From Candidatus Bathyarchaeota archaeon (GTDB lineage: Archaea > Thermoproteota > Bathyarchaeia > Bathyarchaeales > Bathyarchaeaceae): DNA of 64,000 bases. The notes under the pieces are model-generated. The model had not been told where the DNA came from. It saw nothing but the letters and a program-made list of their open reading frames with translations, and ran no database searches. Positions 2,245 to 26,264 of the stretch are shown here, piece by piece; position 1 is the first letter of the stretch, and each line of letters opens with the position of its first letter. A program made the position numbers and the translations under genes. The stretch covers positions 1-64,000 of the forward strand of contig CAVOMX010000010.1 of NCBI GenBank assembly GCA_963697165.1, given 5' to 3'.

Positions 2245-2296
2245 AGATTTGAACTCTCTTCGCAGGGGAAAAAATCTCCTGCAAAACTCCCATTTT
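2245..2296. repeat. highly degenerate att-like repeat (R0)
   Basis: GATTTGAACTC...TCCTGCAAAACTCCCATTTT resembles the consensus core and right arm. Confidence 0.45.
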
Positions 2297-2328
2297 ATTA
2301 ATTCTTAAGATATGTCCACTTTAGCAGT

Positions 2329-2391
2329 AGGGATTTTACCGGGGACCAATTGAGATATCACCCGTTTTTATCCCGCAAATTCCCTTTTTTT
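2329..2391. repeat. tRNA-Pro-derived att-like repeat R1
   Basis: GGGATTTTACCGGGGACCAATTGAGATATCACCCG...TCCCGCAAATTCCCTTTTTTT. Confidence 0.85.
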
Positions 2392-2676
2392 ACACATATG
2401 GTAAAAATTTAATCAACAAACCCAAACATAATATGATATAGTAATGTTACAAATAGAAATAAAATAGAAAGTATATTGATTGTCTAAGAAAATGTTATGG
2501 CCTGAGTTATTATTCAGTTTTTTTCTAGGCGATAAGAAAATTTTTCTCTCAAAACTAATTGTTATAGGTCTTATACTGATAATGAGCCGAATAATAGCAT
2601 TAATAATTATCTCCTAACGAAACTCAAGACTTGACAATAAAAAAGAAGGAAAACAGAGAAAGCTAAGCATTATTGA

Positions 2677-2898
2677 TTATGTCTCTTCTTCTCCGATAAC
2701 TTCAGTGCTAGTTGTGATGTAGTTTCCTTCAGGTACCCAGTAGATTGGTTTTTCGTTTCGAAGCAAATCAGCTATATATACTGCGTTTTCTTTTGGAGGG
2801 AACCAGTTTACATTACGCCAGTTTCCATCTACTTTATAATGGAAGATGATCCAGGGGCGCTCATTTTTTCGGTCGTACCGAAGGTACATAGTTTTCAA
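2677..2898 (-). CDS. hypothetical protein (DxLRNEKPI family)
   Basis: 73-aa ORF sharing DLLRNEKPI and the C-terminal E-x-[IV]-GE-x-ET with its upstream neighbour. Confidence 0.65.
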   Translation of the reverse strand: MKTMYLRYDRKNERPWIIFHYKVDGNWRNVNWFPPKENAVYIADLLRNEKPIYWVPEGNYITTSTEVIGEEET

Positions 2899-2943
2899 CC
2901 ATGTAAACCTTGTAAACCATTTTTTATCACCAGAAAATCAGGG

Positions 2944-3252
2944 TTAGGGGGTTTCTCCTTCACCCACGGGCTCTTTTCCCGTTCCGAGGAATCCTCTATT
3001 TGCTGCAAAGTAGACGTTGATTGGTTTTTCATTTCGAAGAACATCAAGCACATTTTCGAACATACTGGATGGAAGATGCATCCTTATGATATCACCCGAA
3101 ACATAGTCGTTTTCGAAAGTCATACCAGAGTCATTGAATCGGATATATGCGACTACTTTGCTGTTGTTGTAGAGACTAATTTGTGCCCTATTTGTTTGAT
3201 ACCCAGTTGGACTTCCGTAGAAGAGAACATGGTATCCTGTTACGTTTACCAT
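2944..3252 (-). CDS. hypothetical protein (DxLRNEKPI family)
   Basis: 102-aa ORF with upstream GGTGA RBS; DVLRNEKPI...EPVGEGET. Confidence 0.75.
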   Translation of the reverse strand: MVNVTGYHVLFYGSPTGYQTNRAQISLYNNSKVVAYIRFNDSGMTFENDYVSGDIIRMHLPSSMFENVLDVLRNEKPINVYFAANRGFLGTGKEPVGEGETP

Positions 3253-3517
3253 TCATTTCACCTTAATACATATATTGTATATTGATTCTTAATAAACATT
3301 ATTGTGTTGTTATTGGTTCTCCATAGATACAACAAGAATTCAAAATGGAAGAACAAAACGAGCGAAAACATACAAGCCACCGAGACGCACACATTCTCTT
3401 GAAACAGTTAGTTCTATTACGACAGAAAAGTTATTTCCAAAACCAAAAATTAACAAACAAACTCATTTTAAAACCATATTTTACTAAATATTTCCAAATT
3501 AGGACTTATTTCAGAAA

Positions 3518-3603
3518 ATAAGCAATTTTGGCGGGGTCGATGGTATTTACATAGGGGGACATATATTGACATCAACCGATTAATTCCAGCAAACTCCTTT
3601 TTT
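3518..3603. repeat. degenerate att-like repeat R2
   Basis: ATAAGCAATTTTGGCGGGGTCGATGGTATTT...GACATCAACCG...TTCCAGCAAACTCCTTTTTT. Confidence 0.8.
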
Positions 3604-3717
3604 AGAAACATTTTAAAAAAAATTCAGGTGTTTCATTTTTTGAAACGGATTTTCCACAATGTCCCTTATATCGAATTTAGACATATATCATAAACAGAAA
3701 ACACTGAGGCAGTAAAA

Positions 3718-3933
3718 ATGAGAAAAATTGTAAGCGTCGCAATATTGCTTTTGATTTTTGCTAGCATGCTTTGTGGAACTGTAGCAGCGGCTAATACTCT
3801 TGGACCAGCACCTTACGCTGGTGATGGCGTGTCAGATGGCAGAGGGTTTGAAGCAGATCATTGGCAGAATGGAGATAGCCCGGGACCAGCCCCAAATTCC
3901 GGCGATTGTGTTCCAGACGGTAGTGGATTTTGA
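3718..3933 (+). CDS. small secreted protein with two GPAPxxGDxxxDGxGF repeats
   Basis: Signal-peptide-like N-terminus; internal repeat GPAPYAGDGVSDGRGF / GPAPNSGDCVPDGSGF. Confidence 0.75.
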   Translation: MRKIVSVAILLLIFASMLCGTVAAANTLGPAPYAGDGVSDGRGFEADHWQNGDSPGPAPNSGDCVPDGSGF

Positions 3934-4018
3934 TTTTAACTAAAAAATCAAACCTACCAATTTTTTTATTTTACGCTTTATTTATTAAAATAACCTCAAT
4001 TTAATCCATATTTATTAA

Positions 4019-4107
4019 AATAAGCGTTTTGGTGTGGTCTAGCGGGATTTGAACCCCGGACCAATGGAGATATCACCACTGAATTTCCCGCAAACTCCCC
4101 CTTTTTT
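4019..4107. repeat. att-like repeat R3
   Basis: TAAGCGTTTTGGTGTGGTCTAGCGGGATTTGAACCCCGGACCAATGGAGATATCACC...TCCCGCAAACTCCCCCTTTTTT. Confidence 0.92.
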
Positions 4108-4261
4108 AATCGTTCTAAAACATGGTATTATATACTCTAAAACAAACAATGAAAGCGATTAAGTTTGAGCAGAAAAAAGAAACAAGTAAATTATTGAAGT
4201 TTTCTTTTTTTGGGAATTAGTTTGATATCAATTGGATTGACAGGATAAGGAGGTGAATCAA

Positions 4262-4480
4262 TTGGCAGTAGCAGCTTATGCAGGATGGGTATTGGAGCGC
4301 ACTAAAAAGGCACTCAAAGAAGCGGGAGCTACTTCTGAAGAGACTGCTAAAACACCCAAAGAACTCAAACTTGATGAAAAGTGGCTGAAAATGAGTGCCA
4401 ATACAATCATACCTTCTGGTGTTGTTGCAACAAAGGACGGAAGATATTATTTAATTAGCAAAAACGAAAAGCAACAATGA
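4262..4480 (+). CDS. small hypothetical protein (copy 1 of a duplicated cassette)
   Basis: AGGAGGTGA RBS before TTG; near-identical copy at 24279..24497. Confidence 0.75.
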   Translation: MAVAAYAGWVLERTKKALKEAGATSEETAKTPKELKLDEKWLKMSANTIIPSGVVATKDGRYYLISKNEKQQ

Positions 4481-4644
4481 CTTGATTACAAGGCATTCTA
4501 TGTTTCTATTATTAAGAAAAGCCTCAGACTATTACCCTAGTCTGACCTCGTCTCTAGCATGGACTGTGACCCGTCGGGTGATATGTCCCTCAAATCCACT
4601 TTTTTCATTGTAAAACTCTATTTGAGATATTGTCCATTGTTCCT

Positions 4645-4711
4645 TTTGGTGGGGTCGCAGGGATTTGCACCGGGGACCAGTGGAGACATCACCCGCATTT
4701 TACCTTTTTTT
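4645..4711. repeat. att-like repeat R4 (class B core, truncated right arm)
   Basis: TTTGGTGGGGTCGCAGGGATTTGCACCGGGGACCAGTGGAGACATCACCCG. Confidence 0.9.
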
Positions 4712-4776
4712 GCGCCGCTGAAAATACAGTCTATTTACGAAAAGGGTTTTATGAAACCAAAATCCATGCGTATACT

Positions 4777-4902: not shown

Positions 4903-5035
4903 CCGCCTTAATAATCATTTATTTTCAGTTTTGCTGAGTGTAGCCATAGCGACAGCGCAAGTGAAATCACCCACAAGTCACGCGCGCGCAGGTAAGTAAG
5001 CCTAAATTGAGATATCTCTAGTGAAAGCTTGATAC

Positions 5036-5070
5036 TTCACCCGCTAAAATCCCGCAAAATCCCCTTTTTT
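5036..5070. repeat. half repeat R5 (right arm only)
   Basis: TTCACCCGCTAAAATCCCGCAAAATCCCCTTTTTT with no tRNA part. Confidence 0.8.
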
Positions 5071-5196
5071 AACATGCAATTTTAGCCACAATAAATGAAA
5101 ATCATGCTGAGAGTTATTTCTTGAAATGTGCCTTAAAGGATATAATCTAATTAGTCTAATGAGATATTATTGCATATTGGTTATAGGAGTCGGATA

Positions 5197-7710
5197 GTGT
5201 TGAAAGCTCCACCAGAAAAGTTAGGTTCCTTTTATTTGGGGGCACAATATGACCTTAAAAAAAGTCAGATTACTGAAAACGTGGTTAATTATGATGCAAG
5301 GGATTTGACCACTCATGCAGTCTGTTTTGGAATGACAGGCAGCGGAAAGACTGGCTTATGTGTTTGTCTTTTGGAGGAAGCTGCTTTAGACAAGGTTCCT
5401 GCTATCATTATTGACCCGAAAGGAGACATCACTAATCTGATGCTACAATTTCCCAATCTTCAGCCACTAGACTTCAAACCGTGGATTAATCCAGATGACG
5501 CAAGAAGGAAAGGAAAAACAGTAGAAGAATATGCCCAATATACTGCTGAACTTTGGCGTAACGGGCTAGGTGACTGGGGAATAGATTCCACTAGGATTAA
5601 GGCTCTGCAAGATTCTGCTGATTTTGTTATATTTACTCCTGGCTCTGATGCTGGAATTCCAGTTAGTTTACTTAGCAGCCTTGCTGCCCCCAAGTTAAGT
5701 TTTGATGACAATTCTGAGATTATTAGAGAACAAATAACGGGAACAGTAGCGGCTTTGTTGGAATTGGCGGGTGTAAATGCTGATCCTGTTAGAAGTCGTG
5801 AAGCAATTTTGTTGGCTACCATTTTTGAGTATTTCTGGGAAAAAAAGCAAGATTTAGATTTGGCTATATTGATTTCTTCTATTCAAAAGCCTCCAGTTCG
5901 TAAACTTGGAGTTTTTGATGTGGATACTTTTTATCCTGAAAAAGATCGTTTTGAGTTAGCGATGGCTTTTAACAGTTTGATTGCTTCGCCCAATTTCCAA
6001 AGTTGGCTTAAAGGTGAATCATTAGATATTGACAGGCTACTTTATGATGATAAGGGAAAACCTAGGCATTGTATTTTTTATCTTGCCCATCTTTCTGAAC
6101 GGGAAAGAATGCTCTTTGTTACTTTGATTTTAGAGAAAGTGTTAATTTGGGTAAGAGGTCAGACGGGCACTACTAGTTTGAGGGCTTTGTTGTATTTTGA
6201 TGAGGTTTTTGGGTTCATGCCACCAGTTGCTGAACCTCCATCTAAAAGACCATTAATTACTCTTTTGAAGCAGGCTAGAGCCTTTGGTTTGGGTTGTATT
6301 TTGGTTACCCAAAATCCTGTTGACATTGATTATAAGGGGTTAACTAACACGGGTACTTGGTTTATTGGTAAGCTTCAAACAGAAAGGGACAAAAAAAGGG
6401 TCCTTGATGGGTTACAAGGAGTTGTCTCCCAGACAGGGATAGACACTAAAGACTATAGTGATTTGATAAGCAGTCTTTCTAGCAGAGTTTTCTTGTACCA
6501 TAACGTTCATGAAAACGAGCCAGTTGTGTTTTACACACGTTGGGCTATGAGCTATCTCAGAGGCCCTATGACTAGACCTCAAATAAGGCAACTGATGATT
6601 AATCAGAAAGAGTTAACGAGCAGTTCTAAAACTACCGATTTTGAGCCACACCTGAAAGTAAAGTCGTCTGGTGTCATAGAAGAAGAAGGACTGTTTAGAA
6701 ATCCACCCACTCTTTCTCCAGAAATTCCTCAGGTTTTTCTCCCGTTGGAGGTGAGCGAAAATAAAGCAAAACAGTCTTTAATTCAAAAATTTGGTGTGAA
6801 CGTTTATGTCGAAAAGGTTCAACTTCGTTACAGACCTGCAATTTTTGGCAGTGGAACTGTGCGTTTCCTTGATCGTAAACAATCTATCGATGAACAGATC
6901 GAAAAAAATTTAATCATTGAAGATTTGGAGAAGACTTCCTTTGTTGATTGGAAAACTGCCAAGGAATCACAGCTGGGACATAATGATTTATTGAACACTA
7001 AAGATCAGGTTTCTGACAAAGATGCATTTTTTGAATTGATTCCAGAGCTTGCCAACAGTCCAACAGAATTTAAAAAGTTAAACAAGGACCTAAACGATTT
7101 TCTTTATTATAATAGTGTCTTGAAACTGAAAAAGAACAATGATTTAGATGTTATTCAACACCCAGAAGAGTCAGACAGAGATTTTCAGATTCGTCTTTTG
7201 CAGCGGTCCCGGGAAGAGAGAGATGCCGAAGTTGATAAGTTGAAAGGAAAATATGCTAAGAAGTTGGATAAGCTTGAGGATAAGCTCAGTAAGTTAGAGT
7301 TTGATTTGGCTGATGACGAAGCGGAGTATAAAGCAAGAAAGCGTGAGGAATTTGTTGGAGCTGGAGAATCAGTTTTGAGTATTTTTATGGGAAGTAGACG
7401 AACAACTACGGCTACTACCATTGCAAGAAGACGTCGCATGACATCAAAGGCCAAAAGGGAGTTTGATGAAACAAAAGAAGATATTACAAGAGCCAAAAAA
7501 GACATTACAGAGTTAGAAGCAGAACTAAAGAAAGCAGTTGACCAAATTTTGGAAAAATACGAGAAAGTAGCAGAAGATTTGAGTGTAAATGAGCTTAAAC
7601 CCAAAAAGACTGATATTAGAATTAATTTAGTTGCTTTAGCATGGAAACCCTATTGGATAGTAGACTATAAAGAAAGGGGTTTATTGAAAAGAACTGCCGT
7701 AGAAGCATAA
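5197..7710 (+). CDS. HerA/FtsK-superfamily (DUF87-like) ATPase with C-terminal coiled coil
   Basis: Walker A GMTGSGKT, IIIDPKGD, Walker B LYFDEVFG, ARAFG and VTQNP motifs. Confidence 0.85.
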   Translation: MLKAPPEKLGSFYLGAQYDLKKSQITENVVNYDARDLTTHAVCFGMTGSGKTGLCVCLLEEAALDKVPAIIIDPKGDITNLMLQFPNLQPLDFKPWINPDDARRKGKTVEEYAQYTAELWRNGLGDWGIDSTRIKALQDSADFVIFTPGSDAGIPVSLLSSLAAPKLSFDDNSEIIREQITGTVAALLELAGVNADPVRSREAILLATIFEYFWEKKQDLDLAILISSIQKPPVRKLGVFDVDTFYPEKDRFELAMAFNSLIASPNFQSWLKGESLDIDRLLYDDKGKPRHCIFYLAHLSERERMLFVTLILEKVLIWVRGQTGTTSLRALLYFDEVFGFMPPVAEPPSKRPLITLLKQARAFGLGCILVTQNPVDIDYKGLTNTGTWFIGKLQTERDKKRVLDGLQGVVSQTGIDTKDYSDLISSLSSRVFLYHNVHENEPVVFYTRWAMSYLRGPMTRPQIRQLMINQKELTSSSKTTDFEPHLKVKSSGVIEEEGLFRNPPTLSPEIPQVFLPLEVSENKAKQSLIQKFGVNVYVEKVQLRYRPAIFGSGTVRFLDRKQSIDEQIEKNLIIEDLEKTSFVDWKTAKESQLGHNDLLNTKDQVSDKDAFFELIPELANSPTEFKKLNKDLNDFLYYNSVLKLKKNNDLDVIQHPEESDRDFQIRLLQRSREERDAEVDKLKGKYAKKLDKLEDKLSKLEFDLADDEAEYKARKREEFVGAGESVLSIFMGSRRTTTATTIARRRRMTSKAKREFDETKEDITRAKKDITELEAELKKAVDQILEKYEKVAEDLSVNELKPKKTDIRINLVALAWKPYWIVDYKERGLLKRTAVEA

Positions 7711-7790
7711 AAATCAATTGCAAATATAAATCAAAAGCTATTTCAAGATTTATTTAAACAAATAATCATATTTTAGCCTTTATTTAATAA

Positions 7791-7878
7791 AATAAGCTGT
7801 TCGGTAGGGTCGATGGGATTTGAACCCCGGACAAATGGAGACATCACCACTATTTATCCCGCACTTCCCTCTTTTTTT
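7791..7878. repeat. att-like repeat R6
   Basis: AATAAGCTGTTCGGTAGGGTCGATGGGATTTGAACCCCGGACAAATGGAGACATCACC...TCCCGCACTTCCCTCTTTTTTT. Confidence 0.9.
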
Positions 7879-7938
7879 AGATAAAATCTATCCTCTATCA
7901 AAATTGAACAAGAAATTCTCAAAATTAGCGAGGGGCAA

Positions 7939-8166
7939 TTATATTTTTTTAGGATTTCTGGCGAATTCTTTGGCTTGGTTTAATTCCTCTTTTGTTGGGT
8001 GTCCTCGTTTTATTAAAGTAAATTTCCCAAAACAGCTAAAGCAATCACCGAGTGTATAACCTTTATTGACTATAATCTCCTTCATAGCCGCAAGTGTGGT
8101 GGTTGCATCTCCTGCACATGTAGAAAAGAAGGCTACTTGGTTATTTGTTGTAGCATCCAAAGTTTC
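7939..8166 (-). pseudogene. 5'-truncated flavodoxin-like gene fragment
   Basis: VAFFSTCAG...CFSCFG...GHPTKEELNQAKEFA is a flavodoxin-type C-terminal half; the 5' part is replaced by half repeat R7. Confidence 0.65.
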
Positions 8167-8201
8167 GACCCGTTTATTATCCCGCAAACTCCCCCTTTTT
8201 T
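8167..8201. repeat. half repeat R7 (right arm only)
   Basis: GACCCGTTTATTATCCCGCAAACTCCCCCTTTTTT. Confidence 0.8.
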
Positions 8202-8225
8202 AACGGATTATTTTTTTATACTCAC

Positions 8226-9077
8226 ATGATCATATCAAATGTTTTGGAGAAAAAGATTGTGTATTGTTCAAAATGTGGAACTAAGCTAGATGAAGGCGCA
8301 AAGTTTTGTTCCAAGTGTGGAACGACAGTTGATTCGAATGTTGAAATACATAGAACAGAATTAAGTCACAAAGCAAAAGGAAAAACTCTTAGCACCACAG
8401 CAATTGTTGCTATCATTATTGTTGTTGTAGTAGTTATAGCGGGGTTATTATCAACAGTACTTTTCCTTAGTGATGGGCATTTATTTGGCGAAGTTGTTGG
8501 TTCAGGAAATTTAGTTACTAAAGAAGAACAGTTCAGCGATTTCACGGGAGTGGATGCTGGGAGTGGATTCAATGTTGAAATTTCCAAGGCTAGTTCTTAT
8601 AGTGTGATTGTCACAACTGATGATAATGTAATGGAACATATTGAAGTATCTAAGTCAGGTGATGCTTTAAAAGTAGGAGTTAAGTGGGGTACAAGCTTAC
8701 GTTCAGCAACTCTAAAAATCCAGATAACAATGCCAGCAATAAACAGAATAGAATTGTCTGGTGGAGCCCAAGGAAAAATTGAAGACTTCATTTCCAGTAA
8801 TCCATTTTCGGTCGAATTGTCTGGAGGTAGCCAATTAACAGGAGAAGGTTCAGCAGGAGAACTTTCAGTTGACGCTTCGGGTGGCACTCAGTTACATTTT
8901 GCAGACTATTCAGTTCAAGATGCCAACATCGAACTTAGTGGAGGAAGCCAAGCAACAATAAATCTTGATGGAACACTTGATGCTGATCTAAGTGGAGGTT
9001 CCCAACTATATTATTATGGCAACGCAACTCCAGGTGAAATTGAAACATCAAGTGGTTCTCAAATACATAAAAAATAA
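8226..9077 (+). CDS. zinc-ribbon + TM + DUF2807/GIN-like beta-helix membrane protein
   Basis: CSKCG..FCSKCG, one TM helix, GSGN motif and repeated xLSGGSQ units; the true start may be slightly downstream. Confidence 0.85.
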   Translation: MIISNVLEKKIVYCSKCGTKLDEGAKFCSKCGTTVDSNVEIHRTELSHKAKGKTLSTTAIVAIIIVVVVVIAGLLSTVLFLSDGHLFGEVVGSGNLVTKEEQFSDFTGVDAGSGFNVEISKASSYSVIVTTDDNVMEHIEVSKSGDALKVGVKWGTSLRSATLKIQITMPAINRIELSGGAQGKIEDFISSNPFSVELSGGSQLTGEGSAGELSVDASGGTQLHFADYSVQDANIELSGGSQATINLDGTLDADLSGGSQLYYYGNATPGEIETSSGSQIHKK

Positions 9078-9089
9078 TCACAAGTTTAT

Positions 9090-9164
9090 TGTGGGATAGC
9101 AGGGATTTGCACAGGGGACCAGTGGAGATATCACCCGACGAAACTCCGCAATTCCCCCTTTTTT
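9090..9164. repeat. att-like repeat R8 (class B core)
   Basis: GTGGGATAGCAGGGATTTGCACAGGGGACCAGTGGAGATATCACCCG...CTCCGCAATTCCCCCTTTTTT. Confidence 0.88.
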
Positions 9165-9372
9165 GATTTGAAGGATTAAACTTAATCTAAAACCCAAACA
9201 TATATTTCTGTTCACGCACACCTTCATCCTTACCCGCCTATTCTTCTCTTACTCTCGTTTATCCCCAACATTTTAGACACATCACTCATATCTCCCACTT
9301 CATTCAAAAAGAAAGAATTTATAATCGAAAACGAGAAGACATTCATAAAAAGAGATTTACTCAGACAATAAA

Positions 9373-9816
9373 TTATTGAGTTCTATTCTGCTTTTGCTCC
9401 ATTGCTTTCTTAGCTAAAACTACTGCGTCTTCCCTTGTTTCGCCAAAAAGTACACCTATATTGTCAGCATCTTCTTTAGTCACTGCTGCACCTCCAATCA
9501 TGATTACAATTTTGTCCTTTAGTCCTTCAAGTTCTACGGCAGAAATTAGCTCTGGAAGATTCTTCTTAGCTTTTGAATACAAAACAGAAACAACAATTAT
9601 GTCAGCATTTGCCTCTTTAGCCTTTGATGCAAAAGTTGTGGCAGAAACCCCCCGTCCAACATCTATAGTTTTAAACTGAGCCAACTTGAGTGATCTTCTG
9701 ACCATATCTTTAGCAGTAGTCATAATATCTGGTTCAAGAGTGCCTATCACAACTGTTCCAATTGGATTAACTGGTTCAGGTGGCTCTTTCTCTCTCATAG
9801 CTTTTAGCCAAGACAT
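9373..9816 (-). CDS. cobalamin-binding-domain (corrinoid protein-like) protein
   Basis: VVIGTLEPDIM, IDVGRGV, ADIIVVS and IMIGGAAVT match the B12-binding Rossmann domain. Confidence 0.75.
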   Translation of the reverse strand: MSWLKAMREKEPPEPVNPIGTVVIGTLEPDIMTTAKDMVRRSLKLAQFKTIDVGRGVSATTFASKAKEANADIIVVSVLYSKAKKNLPELISAVELEGLKDKIVIMIGGAAVTKEDADNIGVLFGETREDAVVLAKKAMEQKQNRTQ

Positions 9817-9929
9817 TTCAAAAATTACTCCTGTTTCGTTATTATTAATAATTAAAGACTCTTTTAATACTGCCGTATTTGCCTGAAACCGTCATCAATA
9901 ATGTGTGCATGATCCTATCTTTTGATGGC

Positions 9930-16470: not shown

Positions 16471-16571
16471 AAAGTTTAAAATTTTGATTCCCAACCAAAC
16501 CCCAACCGAACATTGTTTATTTTACACCCTATTAGCTCAAATAATCTTGATTAAAGCTTTATTTCTTAAAA

Positions 16572-16656: not shown

Positions 16657-16736
16657 ATTGCATTCCCACATGACACCAGTTCCGATTTACTGTTGAGGCA
16701 AAATATTATGAACCCTATACATACTTAGTCTTAGAC

Positions 16737-17667: not shown

Positions 17668-17707
17668 CAAAGCGTTTTATTCGTCACCAATATGCCGGTC
17701 AATTATT

Positions 17708-18709
17708 GTGAAAGCAATTATATGGACAAAATATGGGTCACCAGAAGTTCTTCAACTCAAAGAAGTAGAAAAACCAGTTCCCAAAGACAATGAAGTGTTG
17801 ATTAGAATAGAAGCGACTACAGTAACTTCAGGGGATTGCGAACAGCGAAGTCTCAAATTGCCATTCTGGCACAGGCTCCCCATGCGAGCATACGTGGGTC
17901 TCAGAAAACCAAAAAGAATAACCATAATGGGAATGGAATTAGCTGGAGAAATTGAAGAAATAGGTAAAAATGTGAAACAGTGTATTGAAAGTGACCAGGT
18001 TTTTGCGGCTACCGGTTTTATCGGTATGGGTACTTACGCGGAGTACATATGTCTGCCAGAAGAACCAGAAGAAGGGGCACTGGTAATAAAACCAACCAAT
18101 ATGACCTATGAGGAAGCCGCAACAGTCCCTGTTGGGGGCCTTGAAGCATTGAGTTTTCTAAGAAAAGGAAATGTCAAAAGCGGACAAACAGTTTTGATTA
18201 ATGGAGCTGGTGGAACGATAGGTCCTTTCGCAATCCAGCTCGCTAAACACTTTGGAGCTGAAGTAACCGCAGTAGATAGCACCACGAAATTGGGCATGTT
18301 GAGTTCCATTGGCGCAGACCAGGTTATTGATTACACTCAAGAAGATTTCACTAAAAGTGGTGCGACCTATGATTTTATTCTGGACTTGGTAGGCAAAAGC
18401 TCTTTTTCAGGCAAGATTAGGTCATTAAATCAAAATGGATGTTATCTTATTTCAAATCCTACACTCAAACAGATGATTCGAGGGCGATGGACTTCATTGA
18501 CAAACAGCAGGAAGATGATATTCGGGGCAGCAACCCCAAAAACTAAAGACTTGATTTTCCTCAAAGAGCTTATTGAAGCGGGAAAGATAAAACCGGTCAT
18601 AGATAGAACATATCCATTAGAACAAGCCGCTGAGGCTCACAGGTATGTCGAAACCGGGCAAAAAAAGGGCCAAGTAGTTATTACTGTGGTGCACAGGAAC
18701 AAAATCTAA
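17708..18709 (+). CDS. NAD(P)-dependent MDR-family alcohol dehydrogenase/quinone oxidoreductase
   Basis: Paralog of the upstream gene; GAGGTIG nucleotide-binding motif. Confidence 0.92.
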   Translation: MKAIIWTKYGSPEVLQLKEVEKPVPKDNEVLIRIEATTVTSGDCEQRSLKLPFWHRLPMRAYVGLRKPKRITIMGMELAGEIEEIGKNVKQCIESDQVFAATGFIGMGTYAEYICLPEEPEEGALVIKPTNMTYEEAATVPVGGLEALSFLRKGNVKSGQTVLINGAGGTIGPFAIQLAKHFGAEVTAVDSTTKLGMLSSIGADQVIDYTQEDFTKSGATYDFILDLVGKSSFSGKIRSLNQNGCYLISNPTLKQMIRGRWTSLTNSRKMIFGAATPKTKDLIFLKELIEAGKIKPVIDRTYPLEQAAEAHRYVETGQKKGQVVITVVHRNKI

Positions 18710-18816
18710 AGAAGCGCTGCAAATAACTTTTGAATTGTAATCCTAAATTTAAACCAAAAAACATATTTTACGCTTTATTTACCAAAATATCCACAATTAA
18801 GGCTTCATTATTTAAA

Positions 18817-18903
18817 ATAAGCAGTTTGGTGGGGTCGCGGGGATTTGGACACAGGACCAGTGGTGACATCACCCGCTAAAATCCCGCAAACTCCCCCTTT
18901 TTT
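18817..18903. repeat. att-like repeat R14
   Basis: ATAAGCAGTTTGGTGGGGTCGCGGGGATTTGGACACAGGACCAGTGGTGACATCACCCGCTAAAATCCCGCAAACTCCCCCTTTTTT. Confidence 0.95.
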
Positions 18904-19108
18904 CAAAGGTAAAATTTTAACACCCAAACCCAAATGAACGGTAGTATTGACAAAATAATATTACCGCAATTCTAAACTAGAATAATTTTCCAGTTTGTAT
19001 ATAGCCCATTATCCATACCACGAAAAATATGGCAGAAATTGCCAACACTAATAACATATTCCATTTTCTTTCCACTTGACACACCTCCTTTTTCTGAAAT
19101 ACTTGCTA

Positions 19109-20767
19109 TTATTCTATTCTATCTAACTTTCTAATTCCAATATAAAGTAGAAAAATTCCTACTAATGTAAAAACAATGGTTAACAAGAGATGGTCAAATA
19201 CTCCAGCAGTAAAAGTGTCTATGTTTGCAAGAATTTTTTCAAAACTCAGACCTGCTCTAGATAGACCAATCTCAAATCCTATGGTTGCAAAAAAGATTAT
19301 CATCAGGTTTATTATGATTCCCATGTTGCGTTCTCGTGATTCTTCAGCAAAGATTGGGTTAATAATAGCTAGACCTAGAACTACAGCAACTAAAGCTAAA
19401 GCTCTTAGCGCACCCCAAACTACATTGATTAACAAGATTTCTAACCCAATTTGAGGAATTAGGATTGTTGAGACAGCAATCACCACTATAACGATTGGAA
19501 CTGCCACCAACCAAGCTTGCAAGAGCCTAGCCTTTACAAACTTCCAAATTCCAGACGGTGATTTTTTAAATATGAAGAGCGTGTCTTTTCCTCTGCTTAC
19601 TGTCCCAACAACAAAAGCAGTAAGAAAAGGGATCGCCATCGTGCTTAGGAACATCAATTGATCTAAGGGTTCTGAAGAAGAATCTGAAATGAATACCCGT
19701 ATTAAAACGACCAAACCCACAGCATAGATAATCCATGATAAGTTTTCAAGTCTTCTACTGTAATCCTTGAATATAGAAGACAATACAGTTCCAAATGACT
19801 TGCCACCTCCCACAAATCTAATTGTTTTGTAGAAGAAACCATCAGGCTTTGCCGTAGAAGATGTAAAGTTAGAGGTATCAAGGCTATAGGCGCGATTGGC
19901 TACTTTTGTGCCCGCCCATAGGGATGCTGTGAAGAATATTAGGAGTCCTCCAAATAGGGTCAAAGTCTGAAAGCCAACAGCCCCAATATCACCTGGATTA
20001 GAGGCAAAACCAACAAAAATCTCTGCGCTCCAAGAACTAGGCAATACACTAAGTGCTGTTCTAACCATTTGACTCGTTCCCGGATTGGCTAAAGCTTCAG
20101 GCAGTCCGCCTCCAATAATCGCGTACAACACCGCAATCATGGGTAGAACGATGATTACTGCAAGAGCTCTTCCAAGATCCTTTCCTCGAGCGATTTTTCC
20201 AAGCTTTGTTCCTAGGACTGCAGCAACAACAACGCCTATCCAAAAAGCAGAAAGAAACGTTATAACAAAAACTGCGATCATTATTGCAATCTGAGCCATA
20301 TCCAATCCAAGTGGAGTAAGAAAAGCTGTGAAAGTACCAGTGAGTACTGCGATGGCGATGGCATAGAAAGGCATTTTGCCCAGAAATTCGCCAAGAAGCA
20401 CGTCACTCGGCTTTACGGGAGCAGCCAAGAAAATCTCTATTTGGGCTGTTTGCAGTTCTCTCAATGTATCGCTAATTGGAAATAATATCATAAAGAAAAA
20501 GAACATGAAAAGCATAATCTGCACTAAGGGAACTGCAGCTTGGGTTATTATGAACACAAGAAAATCATCGATAAATGGGTTTACAATTGCAGGAGCAATA
20601 ATCCCAACATAAACTGCTAGTAATCCAATAGCTAAGTAGAGGAAGTAGGGTCTGATTCTCCGTATGGCACTTGTGCTAATTCGGTATTGATTCCTTGCAA
20701 CCACGAGCCACTTAGGGGATACCACTCTTCTGTTCCCTCCATGCCAATAGCTCCTTCTCTTCCACAC
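19109..20767 (-). CDS. putative ABC exporter permease (multi-pass membrane protein)
   Basis: Many TM segments, downstream of an ABC ATPase; the true start is probably ~40 nt downstream of the ORF start. Confidence 0.75.
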   Translation of the reverse strand: MWKRRSYWHGGNRRVVSPKWLVVARNQYRISTSAIRRIRPYFLYLAIGLLAVYVGIIAPAIVNPFIDDFLVFIITQAAVPLVQIMLFMFFFFMILFPISDTLRELQTAQIEIFLAAPVKPSDVLLGEFLGKMPFYAIAIAVLTGTFTAFLTPLGLDMAQIAIMIAVFVITFLSAFWIGVVVAAVLGTKLGKIARGKDLGRALAVIIVLPMIAVLYAIIGGGLPEALANPGTSQMVRTALSVLPSSWSAEIFVGFASNPGDIGAVGFQTLTLFGGLLIFFTASLWAGTKVANRAYSLDTSNFTSSTAKPDGFFYKTIRFVGGGKSFGTVLSSIFKDYSRRLENLSWIIYAVGLVVLIRVFISDSSSEPLDQLMFLSTMAIPFLTAFVVGTVSRGKDTLFIFKKSPSGIWKFVKARLLQAWLVAVPIVIVVIAVSTILIPQIGLEILLINVVWGALRALALVAVVLGLAIINPIFAEESRERNMGIIINLMIIFFATIGFEIGLSRAGLSFEKILANIDTFTAGVFDHLLLTIVFTLVGIFLLYIGIRKLDRIE

Positions 20768-21516
20768 CTCCAGTTATAGCAATGAAAGCCTCTTCCAACG
20801 TCTTTGTTTTTGTTTTAGCAATGATTTCATTTACTGTACCTATAGCGATAAGTTTGCCTTGAATAATTATCCCTATGCGGTCACACAACTCCTCTACAAC
20901 AGGGAGAATGTGGCTGCAAATGAAGATAGTTTTTCCTGCAGTTTCGGCCAACTTCTTTATTAGATCTTTCACCATAAGCGCAGCACGCGGATCTAGCATG
21001 GATGTAGGCTCGTCAAAGAATAGAATGGGTGGGTCGTGAATCAGAGCTGATGCGATTAGGATTTTCTGTTTCATTCCTCGGCTGTAACCTTCAAGCAGAT
21101 AGTCCCTTCTCTTGTATAGGCCAAACAGCTTCAGTAAATCTTCTATTCTTTCGTTTAGAATATCTGTTGGGACATCGTAAAGGGCTCCCATAAACTCCAA
21201 AAACTCATGGGCACTAAGTTTATCGATATAATCCAGGAGACTCAGCAAGTAAGCCTGTGACTCGTTTTACTTCCGTTTCTTTCTTGATGATGTCATAACC
21301 ATTTACTGTGGCTGTACCGCTGTTGGGTTTTATGATACAATTTAATAAACGGACGGTTGTTGTTTTACCAGCTCCATTTGGTCCAAGTAGACCAAAGGTT
21401 TCACCCTCATATATTTCGAGATTCAGCTCATTTACAGCTTTTATCTCTTTTCCCTTACCATAAAACTTAGATAGCTTATCTGTGCGAATTATGACTTTCT
21501 TTGATTTGTTATTCAA
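20712..21516 (-). CDS. ABC transporter ATP-binding protein (frameshift ~21225)
   Basis: GPNGAGKTT, YSRGMKQK, LFFDEPT and CSH motifs across two ORFs. Confidence 0.92.
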
Positions 21517-21542
21517 TTTTCTATTTCCCTCAAGAACATTGA

Positions 21543-21866
21543 TTATTTTGGTAGACCACTAAAGACTTGCTTTAATTTTTGTTGATATTCGTTAAAAGAA
21601 TTGCGTCCTTTTTTTGTTAATTTCAGTGCTGTGTGGGGTTTTCGTTCAATGAACTCTTTTACTATTTCCACATAACCAGCTTTTTCTAGCTTGCTTAAAT
21701 GGGCTGATAGATTACCGGGGGTCATTTGAAGTTGGTGTTGAAGGAATAGGAAGTCTGCACTTTCAACAACATAGAGTTGGGTCATAATCATCAATCTAGT
21801 AGGTTCATGTATAACTCGGTCAATGTTCTTCAGGTTAGATGGATTCTTGGACATTGATTTTGTCAC
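21543..21866 (-). CDS. winged-helix transcriptional regulator (HTH_34/MarR-like)
   Basis: Close paralog of 15279..15590. Confidence 0.9.
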   Translation of the reverse strand: MTKSMSKNPSNLKNIDRVIHEPTRLMIMTQLYVVESADFLFLQHQLQMTPGNLSAHLSKLEKAGYVEIVKEFIERKPHTALKLTKKGRNSFNEYQQKLKQVFSGLPK

Positions 21867-21867
21867 C

Positions 21868-22484
21868 TTAGGGTAGTGGATATTTTCGTATGAATTGTCA
21901 TCAAAAGCACAAAGCCACTGATAATTATTACAAATCCTATGGTTAATAAGAAGTATTCAAATGGAATCGCTATGAAATGACCTGTAAAAAAAGCACAAAT
22001 ATTAACAGTCCATATCCATAAAGTCGCTTGAGACCCATAGTGTATGCGAATAGACTCGATATAGTTACCGCTCCAATGCCAATGATTATCATGCTATTTG
22101 AAATAAAGAAATCCCTTAATGTTAATGCCCATCCTTCACCCATGGATGCTCCCAAACCAAACACCATAAATGCTCCCAAGCCTGCTACCATTAATCCTAG
22201 AAATATTGCCATCATTTTGTTTGCGCCTCTAACTCCAAATTTTACATAACCAATTCTTGGCATTGTTATTCTCTTCTTTGCCGAAATCCAAATAGGTATC
22301 ATAATTGCAGGAAAAATTGCTGGAATTAATAAACCACGTGCTAAAGTCGGTCATAGTACAGTAGTAAAATACCTATCCCAAACAATAGAACATAAATGCC
22401 GACAAAAATGTCGAGTAACCCGTCTTGATGATATGACATGTAAGTCTTTTTCTCGATTTCCCTCAAACTAGTTTTTTTAGTCAT
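21868..22484 (-). CDS. multi-pass membrane protein (frameshifted), paralog of 15595..16216
   Basis: MTKKTSLREIEKKTYMSYHQDGL start at 22484; ITMPRIGYVKF. Confidence 0.7.
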
Positions 22485-22516
22485 TTAATCACCAAATACT
22501 ATAAACTACATCTAAC

Positions 22517-22541
22517 TATAAAAGACTTTGCATTACAAAGT
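22517..22541 (-). promoter_or_regulatory. TATA box plus perfect palindrome ACTTTG-N5-CAAAGT
   Basis: ACTTTGCATTACAAAGT at 22525-22541 beside TTTTATAG (minus strand). Confidence 0.65.
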
Positions 22542-22688
22542 AATTTATAACAATAATTTTTGTGCTCGTGTGTGGAATGGCTGTGAATTTAACGGTAAAA
22601 AGCTCCACATATAGAAATTGTGATGATTTTATTTCTAGAAACATGAACATATATTCGGTTGAGTCTCTTTCTATTGGTGGTTAAAATT

Positions 22689-23033
22689 ATGGTGGATGAA
22701 GATAAGGAACTGCCAGAATTAAAGGCGCTGTACGATGAGCTTTGGAGTGACGGAAGAACCATGATTAAAGATATGAACAGAAGCATCTATGTATATCTCT
22801 TCGCGGGTTTCATAACGTTGGTTTTCTCGGTTATAATTATTGGAACAGCAATCTCTGATTGGAACAAAATACTCTCAGGAAGCGCAACCAGTCTTACCTA
22901 TTTCTACGCCATAATGGAGACACCTGGCGCAGTGTTTTATGTTGCATTTGGTGTTTTCTTGCTTTATTGGTACATTAAGCTCAAAAATCGATATTCTCGA
23001 TTAATCAGATTGGAAAAAACTATCAAGGAATAA
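22689..23033 (+). CDS. small two-TM membrane protein
   Basis: ELWSDGRTMIKDM resembles ELLIDSKTLIKDL of 23683..24027. Confidence 0.7.
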   Translation: MVDEDKELPELKALYDELWSDGRTMIKDMNRSIYVYLFAGFITLVFSVIIIGTAISDWNKILSGSATSLTYFYAIMETPGAVFYVAFGVFLLYWYIKLKNRYSRLIRLEKTIKE

Positions 23034-23038
23034 TTAAG

Positions 23039-23278
23039 ATGTGTCCAAGGATAACCCCTTCTCCTTCAAAAGCTGCGAAAAGGTTGAAAGAATACTTGGA
23101 CATATTTGACGTAGGATACGCTAAACGGGGTAAAACGCTTAGGTATGACATATACAGAAGGGCAGGAACACAATGGCAAACAGACCGAATGATAGAATAT
23201 CTTGAAAAAAATGGTTTGATTAAAGGGAGACAAAACAGAAGGTTACCACAAAACGGAGAAAGGCGAGATATGGCATGA
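23039..23278 (+). CDS. small basic winged-helix-like protein (possible 3' frameshift)
   Basis: RYDIYRRAG...MIEYLEKNGLI; similar layout to 23381..23671. Confidence 0.55.
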   Translation: MCPRITPSPSKAAKRLKEYLDIFDVGYAKRGKTLRYDIYRRAGTQWQTDRMIEYLEKNGLIKGRQNRRLPQNGERRDMA

Positions 23279-23380
23279 TATCTTGAAAAAACACAGCGAT
23301 CTTGTTGGTGTACTGACAAAGGAATTGAGCGGAGATCGTAAAAAACGCTTGTAAAAAACTGTAGCTAGTGCACGTGCATT

Positions 23381-23671
23381 CTATCTTCTCAGTCTTCTTC
23401 CACTTAAACTGGCGAATAATTTGATGAGGTTTCCGCTCTTCAGCAGTTTATGAAAAAGTTCGCCTCGTTCTGTCTTGATATAGTAGTAGCGTCTACCCTC
23501 TCGGCGTTCAACGATGATTTTTTCTTTAATAAAGAACTCGGTTATCCATATCCTGAACTGCGTTTCGTTCCCAAGAACTTTAACTAAATCCCATTTCGTG
23601 GCTTGTTCCCTTTCTTTGATACAATCCAGAATATCTAAGGCTATAGAATTAGGGGATCTACGGGAAGCCAC
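23381..23671 (-). CDS. small winged-helix DNA-binding protein
   Basis: RRSPNSIALDIL...TKWDL...YYYIKTERG, typical of archaeal wHTH proteins. Confidence 0.7.
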   Translation of the reverse strand: MASRRSPNSIALDILDCIKEREQATKWDLVKVLGNETQFRIWITEFFIKEKIIVERREGRRYYYIKTERGELFHKLLKSGNLIKLFASLSGRRLRR

Positions 23672-23682
23672 TTTTAACGCTC

Positions 23683-24027
23683 CTACGCAGCTATCTGTTC
23701 CTGAAGAGATTTGAGGCGTGCGTACCCTTTTCTCAGTTTGTACCATTTTCGGACCTGTATGGCTGCATTGAAAGACGTTACGGAGAGGATAATGAATCCA
23801 GCGGCGATGTATTTTATTTCTTCAGCACGAATGCCCCTGTCGAAACCTATGACTAGAGCCGCCAATCCAATTCCGATTAGGACTAGCGCTGAGATCGCAA
23901 TGTAGTTGATGCCTTCTGAGAGATCCTTGATGAGGGTCTTTGAGTCAATCAGCAATTCTTCAAAGATGGCGTTCCACTTGATGAGCTTCTCGTCAACACC
24001 TGGTTCGCTAGAATCTTTATTATCCAT
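23683..24027 (-). CDS. small two-TM membrane protein
   Basis: Paralog of 22689..23033; upstream GAGG RBS-like sequence. Confidence 0.7.
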   Translation of the reverse strand: MDNKDSSEPGVDEKLIKWNAIFEELLIDSKTLIKDLSEGINYIAISALVLIGIGLAALVIGFDRGIRAEEIKYIAAGFIILSVTSFNAAIQVRKWYKLRKGYARLKSLQEQIAA

Positions 24028-24278
24028 GTCTATTCACTACATCCTCTAAAAGCGCTTTCTGATGCTTTAAGATTTGTTCTGAAACTAATGTCCTCATTAA
24101 TTCCAGTATGTACAAGGAATTTTTGGGGTTAAAATTTACCTCCAAACCCAATAAATGAACGGTTCCAACTTCTAGAACACCTTGGTCTATTAAATAGAAT
24201 TAAATCTCTTAAATATTGTGTACTACAACTGATAAAATGCTGAGAAATTGGATTGACAGGATAAGGAGGTGATAATAA

Positions 24279-24497
24279 TTGGCAGTAGCAGCTTATGCAG
24301 GATGGGTATTGGAGCGCACTAAAAAAGCACTCAAAGAAGCGGGAGCTACTTCTGAAGAGACTGCTAAAAAACCCAGAGAACTCAAACTTGATGAAAAGTG
24401 GCTGAAAATGAGTGCCAATACAATCATACCTTCTGGTGTTGTTGCAACAAAGGATAGAAGATATTATTTAATATGCAGAAACGAAAAGCAACAATGA
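24279..24497 (+). CDS. small hypothetical protein (copy 2 of a duplicated cassette)
   Basis: Near-identical to 4262..4480. Confidence 0.75.
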   Translation: MAVAAYAGWVLERTKKALKEAGATSEETAKKPRELKLDEKWLKMSANTIIPSGVVATKDRRYYLICRNEKQQ

Positions 24498-24679
24498 CTT
24501 GATTACAAGGCATTCTATGTTTCTATTATTAAGAAAAGCCTCAGACTATTACCCTAATCTGACCTCGTCTCTAGCATGGACTGTGACCCGTCATGTGATA
24601 TGTCCCTCAAATCCCCTTTTTCCATAATAGTTATTGTTTCTTATTTTTGAAAATCAAAATAATTGTTCCGTGTTCCGCG

Positions 24680-24757
24680 TGGTGGGGTCGCGGGGATTTG
24701 CACCGGGGACAATTGGTGACATCACCCGTTTATTTTCCCGCAAATTCCTCCTTTTTT
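24680..24757. repeat. att-like repeat R15 (class B core)
   Basis: TGGTGGGGTCGCGGGGATTTGCACCGGGGACAATTGGTGACATCACCCG...TCCCGCAAATTCCTCCTTTTTT. Confidence 0.93.
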
Positions 24758-24801
24758 GAGCATTAAATCCTAAAACCCTGAACCAAAAATTGTCAGATTT
24801 T

Positions 24802-25662
24802 TTAAAAATTGGAGAAGATTCCTAGTATCACAGGAATATCTGTTCCTGCATGAAATAAAATTGAACCTATCAGACTATCTGTTTTTTGTATTACTGCTCC
24901 GAATGCTAAACCGAGCAAAAATACAATGAAAAGGAATAATATCATTACTGGTGAATAGGTCTCACCTATATGAGCTAAGGCAAATATCATCGATTGTAAA
25001 AGGTTAGATGGATCAACTCCCAATAATGTCTCATATTTTTTCAGGAAAAACCCCCTAAACTGAATTTCCTCCTTAATTCCATTCGAAAACACAAAAACCA
25101 AAATCCATGGTAACCAAGCAATTAGCTTGTTAAATGTCAAGTTTTTTCCTTCGTAGAGTAATGTAGACGTCCAGACTGATGTTGCTAGGAAGAATAGAAA
25201 AAGTATTATTCCAATTGTCAACCCCAGTTTGAGTTTGCCTTTTCTTAAGTATATTGAAGCTAAATCTTTCTTCGTAACCTTAGTTAATAATACAATTGGA
25301 ATTATTACAATTAATGAGCTGAGAACCTTAAATAGAATAGTTAAATCCATCCGAGAAGGAGAAATCCAATATAATAATGACTGATTCGAATACAGAAAAT
25401 ACTCAAATATAGTAACAATAGAAGAAATAAAGAACGCAAAGATCAAAGGTAAGAATTTAGCAAGATAGGTTTTTCTGCGAATTAAAAGAGCACTTGTGAA
25501 GAAAATTATACAGACTGCAATTCTATATATTAATTTAATTGGGTCAGGAAGAAGTAGAGGAATAGTGAAAATGGAAATTCCGCAAGTAAGAAAAAATGCA
25601 AACAATGTTGATCTTCTAAATTTCTTATCAGTTTCCATTTTACTCAAAGTGTTGTTTCTCAT
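24802..25662 (-). CDS. CPBP (CAAX/Abi) family intramembrane metalloprotease
   Basis: EEIQFRG, FALAH and HAGTD motifs; multiple TMs. Confidence 0.9.
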   Translation of the reverse strand: MRNNTLSKMETDKKFRRSTLFAFFLTCGISIFTIPLLLPDPIKLIYRIAVCIIFFTSALLIRRKTYLAKFLPLIFAFFISSIVTIFEYFLYSNQSLLYWISPSRMDLTILFKVLSSLIVIIPIVLLTKVTKKDLASIYLRKGKLKLGLTIGIILFLFFLATSVWTSTLLYEGKNLTFNKLIAWLPWILVFVFSNGIKEEIQFRGFFLKKYETLLGVDPSNLLQSMIFALAHIGETYSPVMILFLFIVFLLGLAFGAVIQKTDSLIGSILFHAGTDIPVILGIFSNF

Positions 25663-25790
25663 TTAGAAAATATAACTTTTATAATTACGCGCTTTGCGTA
25701 GGTGGATTAGATATTAACATTAAATAATAAATAGCGGTTACTCAATTTGGATCCTATCAGCTTAAATAATCCTGATTTGAGCTTTGTTTG

Positions 25791-26264
25791 TTAAAATAGG
25801 CGTTTTGGTGGGGTCGCGGGGATTTGAACCCCGGACCTCGCGCGCCCCGGGCGCGAATCTTGGACCATGCTAGACCACGACCCCCCAGGAACAGATCCCG
25901 ACCCTAAATACGAGATCTCCCTTTTACGGAAGATTCTTCCACCGTCATCATATTCGCCGGTGACGTATTCTAAGCCGAGTTCGATCAGTTCGGTTGCTTC
26001 TTTTACGTTCACTGCAACCTTACTGATGAATCTTTCTTCCTGAGGCACATCTACGAGCTGAATATATTTTAGTGTTGTCTTAATGCTCCGATGACCAAGC
26101 AAATGCTGAACATATAGGATGTCTTTGGTTCTAGCGTACTCTGTGGTGGCCTTCCAGTGCCTAATCGTATGAAAGTGAATCATTAGGATCCTTGGGTTTC
26201 CCAGCTTGTGAGCAATCTTCTTTCTCCTCTTCTTCATTGTGATCCCATGGAAACCGCCAACCAT
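25791..26264 (-). pseudogene. tyrosine recombinase/integrase, C-terminal catalytic fragment whose ORF reads through tRNA-Pro
   Basis: HFHTIRHW (HxxR), LLGH and the catalytic Tyr in TTLKY; N-terminal domains absent. Confidence 0.85.
25806..25884 (-). tRNA. tRNA-Pro(GGG), CCA encoded; anchor site of the array
   Basis: Cloverleaf GGGGTCG/CGACCCC-A-CCA; anticodon stem CGCGC/GCGCG with loop CCGGGGC; T-arm CGGGG-TTCAAAT-CCCCG. Confidence 0.92.

Follow-up and report, generated by a model that had tools for sequence, protein, structure and literature searches.

Small integrase-less gene units at a tRNA-Pro gene of Bathyarchaeia, probably stacked by serial site-specific integration

Bathyarchaeia are among the most abundant archaea of sediments, and their ways of exchanging genes are poorly known. 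In a Candidatus Bathyarchaeota archaeon, a tRNA-Pro(GGG) gene is followed on its 3′ side by a row of repeats that all point the same way and separate small gene units, raising the question of how such units came to be lined up there and which enzyme could have put them in place. The window analysed here is a 64,000-nt stretch, bases 1–64000 of contig C10 of a metagenome-assembled genome (MAG), a short-read assembly of 1.99 Mb in 25 contigs (81% complete, 2.9% contamination). We find that the region 2245–25805 is probably a genomic island to which small elements without an integrase were added one after another, by site-specific integration at the tRNA-Pro(GGG) 3′ end. Positions refer to the window, contig numbers standing alone refer to the source genome and G numbers denote other genomes, among them G019, by its public record a single-cell genome, and G024, a complete-chromosome record of one contig.

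The sole tRNA gene of the window, an intact tRNA-Pro(GGG) on the minus strand (25806–25884; ARAGORN), is the anchor of the array (attB/attL). An nhmmer profile built from 15 of the copies marked in a preliminary description of the locus was used to scan the whole genome and gave 15 copies on C10 (2299–24781; E values of 9e-35 to 9e-8), 15 of 15 on the plus strand and all on the 3′ side of the tRNA gene, as had been described; it also matched the tRNA's own 3′ end (25788–25838). Repeats that entered the profile match it by construction. Support independent of the profile comes from two de novo repeat families, D1 (11 copies) and D3 (8 copies), and from a 19-nt box with five matches against 0.01 expected. 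The earlier count of about 16 co-oriented repeats stands for these 15; the sixteenth, near 2245, was missed both by this profile and by the module-only profile introduced below, and is a degenerate copy seen by eye in the alignment only. Rfam at gathering thresholds returned nothing in the window, the tRNA included. Among public loci that bear the repeat, 21 of 26 are labelled as Bathyarchaeota, Bathyarchaeia or Bathyarchaeum.

A full copy is a composite site of roughly 105–160 bp that reads, on the plus strand, as a trailer-like arm, a copy of the tRNA 3′ end (the core), a module and, often, a TATA-like box followed by CCCAAACCC. The core is the reverse complement of the last 32 nt of tRNA-Pro (25807–25837 on the plus strand); the 31-nt tRNA end matches exactly at 16582 and 25807 (3 matches versus 0 expected), and the stretch 16575–16612 is identical to 25800–25837, as the preliminary description had stated. 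The arm carries a 19-nt motif (13 matches versus 1.66 expected, all on the plus strand) that is doubled in five copies at a spacing of exactly 30 nt. One such motif (25781–25799) lies inside the tRNA's own trailer (25753–25805, plus strand), which would be the P′ arm of the newest unit and is 89% identical to 16528–16612 over 85 nt. G024 and G003 have a similar trailer although an array is lacking or only small there. The module consists of a 12-bp palindrome of the form GGWGAYATCWCC, one or two CCCGC boxes and a C-rich run that ends in T6–7. All these parts are present in the most complete copy (R14; 18772–18931, plus strand; E 9e-35), with arm motifs at 18772 and 18802, the tRNA 3′ copy, the palindrome, the CCCGC boxes, the T-run and the TATA-like box. 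Alignments start from the trailer or acceptor part in 12 of the 15 copies, and those at 15171, 5009 and 8161 are partial core or module alone. Copies are 75–90% alike over about 150 nt, and the longest exact identity between any of them is 38 nt.

Neither strand of 34 modules gave a consensus structure with RNAalifold, and single-stranded DNA folds of four repeats, computed for both strands, had z values of −0.2 to −2.0 and shared no hairpin. These results rule out a structured-RNA reading of the module, and with no consensus RNA structure and no consistent single-strand stability we read the composite site as a putative protein-binding DNA site. Homology between shared units starts or ends at the 12-bp palindrome. 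As a crossover point, the palindrome is indistinguishable from the adjacent tRNA-derived core; we prefer the core, since the native tRNA has no palindrome, and crossover would thus take place inside the core. A further candidate, that the trailer-like arm is a relic of an integrase 3′ coding end, was rejected: the 3′ flanks of seven integrase genes are unlike the arm, and the arm resembles the tRNA trailer even in G024, where no array follows tRNA-Pro. The core itself occurs in two variants, one at 4630, 9070, 11796 and 24657 and the other at 4008, 7775 and 16553, that differ by a hexamer reverse-complemented in place (CCCCGG versus CCGGGG) beside a T-loop change (GAA versus GCA).

The units between the repeats carry no integrase, as the preliminary description had stated. 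Pfam searches of 39 open reading frames (ORFs) found none inside 2245–25800, PF00589 being assigned only to 25791–26264 (minus strand), and a six-frame search of the genome gave a single match on C10 (26055–26240, minus strand) and none between repeats. Directly upstream of the tRNA gene, on the same strand, lies a C-terminal remnant of a tyrosine integrase (25905–26246, minus strand; HxxR...Y) that is 82% identical in protein sequence to a full 409-amino-acid integrase at the same place in G003. No direct repeats of the tRNA were seen upstream of that full integrase among the best 20 of 28 repeat families in G003. Next to the integrase remnant is a C-terminal remnant of a terminase large subunit (26370–26744, minus strand; BLASTP 30%, E 1e-7, against the terminase of an integrase-bearing element in G019), whose DNA recurs at C9:3573–4078 and C8:52844–53194; this remnant indicates a decayed element of the integrase-bearing type on the other side of the tRNA as well. 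The overlapping piece 26213–26718 has copies of 79–86% identity on C9 and C8 and in G003, G005, G008 and G014.

The integrases of this family have an N-terminal zinc ribbon and a C terminus of the form ...GFEYV...FRKRK, and the source genome holds two full copies and several C-terminal fragments. XerA is the nearest known family, at scores below the curated cut-offs, and full relatives reach 66.8 and 79.4 bits on the integron-integrase model TIGR02249, against a cut-off of 265. In 9 of 30 loci from the genus, the 3′ end of the integrase gene lies no more than about 60 nt from a tRNA gene (7 convergent, 2 co-directional); full-length genes stand intact at 20–60 nt from the tRNA in seven of these nine, and the other two are fragments. 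Across the genus, very many matches to the family span only the last 100–190 residues, several of them right beside tRNA genes.

Two loci show the module at the end of elements that have such an integrase. On G019:C11, tRNA-Pro(GGG) is followed by a convergent gene for a 435-amino-acid integrase, then by genes for a primase/D5-type protein, a methylase-like protein, a terminase large subunit and a small winged-helix protein; the element ends at 10.7 kb with a partial tRNA core and a module, beyond which chromosomal genes (MFS transporter, heliorhodopsin) resume. On C6 of the source genome, a decayed integrase gene immediately precedes an ftr-like gene, whose first ~120 nt recur 5 kb away and run straight into a module. 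The order of these elements (module, genes, integrase, target mimic) places the module, in a circular form, just beyond integrase and mimic, where it would be one arm of attP. With these elements, and with the truncated family integrase directly upstream of the tRNA, the system is not one that lacks an integrase family or known relatives.

Two side observations concern these loci. The C6 element (57418–63190) sits in the 5′ end of the ftr-like (formyltransferase) gene, to which it supplies a replacement N terminus. Within 2 kb it holds six modules, facing either way and lying around small ORFs, among them a universal-stress-protein-like gene. Homologues of the MFS transporter and heliorhodopsin genes are found in the window at 42061–43257 and 46643–47509 (88% and 79% protein identity), 16–21 kb off on the 5′ side of the tRNA, whereas in G019 they lie on its 3′ side beyond the element; this points to an inversion that had the tRNA/att locus as one of its ends.

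The module also occurs far beyond the array. A module-only profile found 53 copies at E ≤ 1e-3 in the source genome; 15 of them belong to the array and the remaining 38 are spread over 13 other contigs, with both orientations within contigs. Its left neighbours vary, being other tRNA 3′ ends, a sense-strand tRNA 5′ part or the start of a protein gene. Where modules cluster, the geometry is constant, on the 3′ side of a tRNA gene and antisense to it; such clusters lie behind tRNA-Ile on C24 of the source genome and behind tRNA-Asp and tRNA-Ile in the one-contig G024. Behind tRNA-Pro(GGG), G001 has seven copies, G005 two and G024 none. With a sequence-only model, the module was detected in 35 of 151 Bathyarchaeia genomes, representing 27 of 79 genera, and the integrase family is present in 25 of the 35 module-positive genomes compared with 30 of the 116 module-negative ones, counts in which related genomes are not independent. 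The module pattern had 0 matches in a viral contig collection, and an exact 33-nt search for the tRNA 5′ part gave no match in the loci to which it was applied.

Comparison with relatives shows that units are shared between species and reshuffled. The unit U13 with both flanking sites (16561–18903) is 97.7% identical over 2345 nt to G019:C10 (blastn), whereas long syntenic core matches between the two genomes have 75–79% identity and a few 0.6–0.9-kb pieces 87–89%. At the left site of U13, identity to G019 is ~74% in the arm and ~88% in the core and reaches the level of the unit from the palindrome on; at the right site it declines from the arm (91%) through the core (85%) to the remaining part of the module (~70%), after which it vanishes. 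These gradients are as serial integration of module–cargo–arm units predicts, with crossover in the tRNA-derived core. The piece 4084–4235 lies 12 kb farther from the tRNA than U13 here and on the tRNA-proximal side of U13 in G019. U5 is 85% identical to G019:C13, with different neighbours; U8 is 88–90% identical to G019:C22; U9 is 95–97% identical to G006:C5 and G008:C68, without flanking repeats there; and U14 is 88% identical to G022:C40, with further partial matches. Over the 24 other genomes of the genus, U3, U4, U5, U8, U9 and U14 are patchily shared at 85–98%, and the tRNA-Asp array of G024 contains a relative of the unit 3626–4110 that has kept a tRNA-Pro-like core behind it. Unit content and order both differ in G001, G005, G019 and G024, a comparison that the preliminary description had proposed. 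Together with cross-species identities far above those of core genes, these differences point to discrete, horizontally moving units stacked at the tRNA. The view, already put forward in the preliminary description, that the repeats are att-type junctions anchored on the tRNA is likewise supported, as is the absence of an integrase from the units.

On the basis of these comparisons, we propose the following model. Each element would consist of a module, cargo and a trailer-like arm. Its integration into the regenerated tRNA gene would push older units outward, such that each internal junction would combine the arm of the older unit, the 32-nt tRNA 3′ copy as the crossover region and the module of the newer unit, together a full attP-like site; unit order would then reflect age. 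Module and arm would be the recognition arms of the Bathyarchaeia-wide, XerA-like zinc-ribbon tyrosine integrases. The autonomous elements, of about 10 kb and with genes for integrase, primase-helicase and terminase, have the integrase at the target end and the module at the other. Because the module and arm would serve such an integrase and the autonomous elements carry the module at their far end, it is most likely an integrase of this kind that moves the cassettes in trans, much as cis-mobilizable elements or satellites are moved, and the cassettes are exchanged between species; some vehicle would have carried them between cells.

Several observations weigh against this model or blur it. 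At this tRNA the integrase is a C-terminal remnant with no full-length family copy adjoining, both full copies (on C20 and C25) are unlinked to tRNA-Pro, and the arm of the array differs from that of the integrase-bearing element in G019. The array is known from a MAG assembly of the completeness (81%) and contamination (2.9%) given above. Contigs from the Logan collection for four sediment runs, laid on 6201–26200, contain repeat-to-repeat joints (16628 to 18877 in X1, 16627 to 18881 in X2, 18873 to 24734 in X1 and 25836 to 8168 in X4); as these contigs are short and were admitted at 90% likeness, the joints may be empty sites or, equally, other members of the repeat family. Frameshifts interrupt three cargo genes here, both of those checked being intact in G019, and three sites are truncated, a state that decay and activity of the stack would explain equally well. 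In G006, G008 and G024, U9 occurs with part of its upstream region but without any repeat, and the U8 block of G011 has the opposite orientation with respect to its repeat; genes therefore also enter or leave by other routes.

The decay seen here is what would be expected if the units had arrived as full integrase-bearing elements and then lost the integrase and most genes, the integrase-less units never having been mobile. The abundance of truncated integrase genes in the genus (many matches covering only the last 100–190 residues), the remnants of integrase and terminase beside this tRNA, the three frameshifted genes and the three truncated sites would all follow. We nonetheless consider such a graveyard unlikely: the six-frame search found an integrase trace in none of 15 units, both species that share U13 (97.7% identity) have it without an integrase and with a complete site at either end, units of only ~50–500 nt still keep full sites, and arrays on G019:C13 and G019:C10 are likewise without integrase matches. 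A quite different route, which we rate as improbable, would leave the repeats as old att scars that act as patches of homology, units being swapped after DNA uptake with no site-specific enzyme. The homology breakpoints fall in the best conserved 17–40 nt of the repeats, where homologous recombination would place them too, which is a further point against the site-specific model, and exchange of modules between tandem integrated elements by homologous recombination has been proposed (PMC8371274). Repeats that are only 75–90% alike over ~150 nt are, however, a poor substrate; an elaborate, phased site architecture is kept in most copies; and conservation of the module in 27 of 79 genera implies selection for a protein-binding function.

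The spread of the module bears on whether the repeat might be a dispersed non-coding sequence (like a miniature inverted-repeat transposable element (MITE), or a promoter–terminator module) that multiplies by itself and merely punctuates genes. Genome-wide dispersal in both orientations with target-site duplications had been named in advance as an observation that would speak against the cassette reading, and for the module half of the repeat the dispersal is indeed seen (38 of 53 copies outside the array, on 13 other contigs); the module also ends in a T-run followed by a TATA-like box. But the copies are clustered behind tRNA genes in one orientation, their flanks are target fragments (tRNA 3′ ends, a tRNA 5′ part, the start of the ftr-like gene) rather than a duplicated insertion site, and no terminal inverted repeats, as in MITEs, surround the unit in three of three copies tested, leaving little probability for this explanation. 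We give even less to an assembly chimera, in which similar repeats would have joined contigs of different strains into an artificial array. The genome is a short-read MAG, among the Logan contigs listed none spans a whole unit with both junctions, and many alternative joints occur in the four runs; yet the longest exact identity between copies is 38 nt, and the same kind of array is present in the complete-chromosome record G024 and the single-cell genome G019. Serial site-specific accretion accordingly remains the reading that we favour.

How does this arrangement relate to known systems? CIMEs are the integrase-less, att-flanked elements of streptococcal integrative and conjugative elements (ICEs). 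They and tandem accretion in general resemble the present case in that a tyrosine recombinase reuses one tRNA site, internal att sites remain between units, and integrase-less units are bounded by the att sites of a family with autonomous members; here, too, the att sites are of the type seen in integrase-bearing elements (G019:C11, and C6 of the source genome) and no recombinase lies within the units. What differs is the density, with ~15 units in 23.5 kb and a full composite site at every junction, the conservation of a site arm across a whole archaeal class, and the partners, for no conjugative one is evident and the autonomous relatives carry primase and terminase. Tandem arrays by reuse of one tRNA site are stated for archaea in two articles (PMC6563490, PMC8371274). 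Tycheposons (10.1101/2020.12.28.424599) and tRNA-linked genomic islands of Prochlorococcus are likewise seeded at tRNA genes; like the island described here, they combine newcomers that displace older elements further inward, scattered partial tRNAs, fragmented integrases, adaptive cargo and some satellite-like elements with primase or terminase. They belong to another domain of life, the integrase here is XerA-like with a zinc ribbon, and most units here lack an integrase yet keep complete two-armed sites. Archaeal integrases of the SSV and pTN3 types also use tRNA genes and leave remnants that accumulate in chromosomes, according to PMC8371274, but unlike SSV-type integrase genes, which contain attP within the ORF, the gene here is not split by integration and the att site lies downstream of it.

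The preliminary description had suggested that the locus would be an archaeal integron analogue without IntI or attC. Both systems have a fixed capture point followed by co-oriented sites that separate small swappable gene units, the content of the array varies, and an integrase gene lies beyond the capture point (a remnant here, full-length in G003). In contrast to integrons, for which published archaeal MAG examples rest on IntI and attC (PMC9668308), there is no IntI (67–79 bits against a cut-off of 265), the tyrosine recombinase with a characteristic extra domain that integrons encode beside attI; the sites lack the single-strand fold of the imperfect palindromes in attC; the capture point is a tRNA gene; and cargo lies in both orientations, where integron cassettes mostly face one way and lack promoters. 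The comparison is thus an analogy of effect, not membership. A broader proposal, which we put forward only tentatively, is that Bathyarchaeia possess a class-wide, integron-like capture system assembled from unrelated parts, in which minimal cassettes (a gene or a few with a composite site) would be captured serially at tRNA 3′ ends and exchanged between species by an XerA-like integrase acting in trans from primase–terminase elements. As to novelty, which had also been suggested, accretion of non-autonomous elements at tRNA genes is already known, as are tandem tRNA integration and integrase-less att-flanked elements; the compact, class-wide cassette form appears to be undescribed. Full-text searches of the literature, supplements aside, gave no description of the module or of dense rows of integrase-less cassettes in Bathyarchaeia.

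If the arrays are active, tRNA genes would be collection points for single-gene accessory modules in Bathyarchaeia (here dehydrogenases, a hybrid-cluster protein, a methyltransferase, transporters and regulators), and these modules would move from one species to another with identities well above those of core genes, an archaeal plasticity like that of integrons. Genetic tools, which this group lacks, could also be built on the defined recombination site and the candidate integrase that the arrays would provide. Should the array be no more than a decaying stack, its conserved module still serves as a practical marker by which to spot mobile DNA in genomes of this class.

In all, the island holds ~15 units in 23.5 kb, most with one or two genes or none and some only ~50–500 nt long with full sites retained; by their ORFs, eight units lie on the plus strand and five on the minus strand. 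The units had been called unrelated, but not all of them are: 15321–16282 resembles 21585–22547 (78.5% identity), and 4230–4695 resembles 24246–24728 (90%). Next to the tRNA, U15 (24782–25752, minus strand) encodes a CPBP/Rce1-like protease (24802–25662; Pfam); a search of the genus (24 other genomes) at E ≤ 1e-40 gave no match to it. It is bounded by R15 (24657–24781; this and all other repeats on the plus strand), which has the core variant GCACCGGGGAC and a module but no trailer-like arm (nhmmer E 7e-26; module E 5e-15). U14 (18932–24656, minus strand) contains genes for an ABC-2 permease (19109–20767), a split ABC ATPase (20712–21248 and 21220–21516; Pfam) and an ArsR-type HTH_34 regulator (21543–21866, minus strand), along with small ORFs.

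One of these, at 24279–24497 (plus strand), is the second copy of a 75-amino-acid ORF without family match that is duplicated in the array (the other at 4253–4480). Its DNA is 95–98% identical to copies in three other species, in G018 at ~100 nt from tRNA-Leu. Its conservation is well beyond that of core genes, and its product could be a small DNA-binding or excision factor.

Beyond R14, U13 (16660–18771, plus strand) carries two zinc-type alcohol dehydrogenase (ADH) paralogues (Pfam), the first split (16737–17351 and 17248–17667) here and intact in G019 (309 amino acids), the second at 17708–18709. R13 (16553–16659) includes the exact 38-nt copy of the tRNA end and trailer, and only ~50 nt separate it from the degenerate R12 (16378–16499; nhmmer E 2e-13), a unit without cargo. 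R11 (15171–15259) is a partial core with a module, and its left flank belongs to another class, common to C25:170247 and C24:144651. The 538-amino-acid ORF that follows (13340–14956, minus strand) has at least four tandem 42-nt repeats at 14581–14790; it matches no family and, at E ≤ 1e-40, is without relatives in the genus. R10 (13165–13326) combines arm motifs at 13165 and 13195, a diverged tRNA-like core and a long-form module.

U9 (11925–13164, plus strand) encodes an S-adenosylmethionine (SAM)-dependent methyltransferase (12117–12974; Pfam) and is followed outward by R9 (11768–11924; two arm motifs, core and module). U8 (9196–11767, minus strand) has genes for a B12-binding domain protein (9373–9816) and a hybrid-cluster protein (Pfam) that is split here (9930–11315 and 11278–11580) and intact in G019 (554 amino acids). 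R8 (9070–9195) is a core with a module, R7 (8161–8223) a module only, and R6 (7747–7894) has two arm motifs, core and module. U5 (5091–7746, plus strand) carries a gene (5170–7710) for an 846-amino-acid protein with a HerA/DUF87-like P-loop; R5 (5009–5090), at its outer end, is a module only, where the homologous G019 unit has a full repeat. R4 (4630–4733), a core variant with a short-form module, overlaps the duplicated piece 4230–4695. Also within this piece, 4535–4615 is a second type of site, a stretch like the sense 5′ part of a tRNA followed by a module-like palindrome and T-run; it resembles C6:61012–61095 and is the junction expected for elements that enter a tRNA gene from the 5′ side.

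Farther out are R3 (3975–4121; two arm motifs, core and module), the degenerate R2 (3500–3618; nhmmer E 3e-18), the profile match R1 (2299–2423) and the degenerate R0 (~2245–2298), identified by eye and with a tRNA-Ile-like T-loop. The piece 2200–2364 that covers the last two is 90% identical to C24:142135–142299. At the outer edge of the array stands a KatG-type catalase-peroxidase gene (67–2181), probably foreign, with 54% G+C against 36–41% in the array; the contig starts beside it, and the array may continue beyond.

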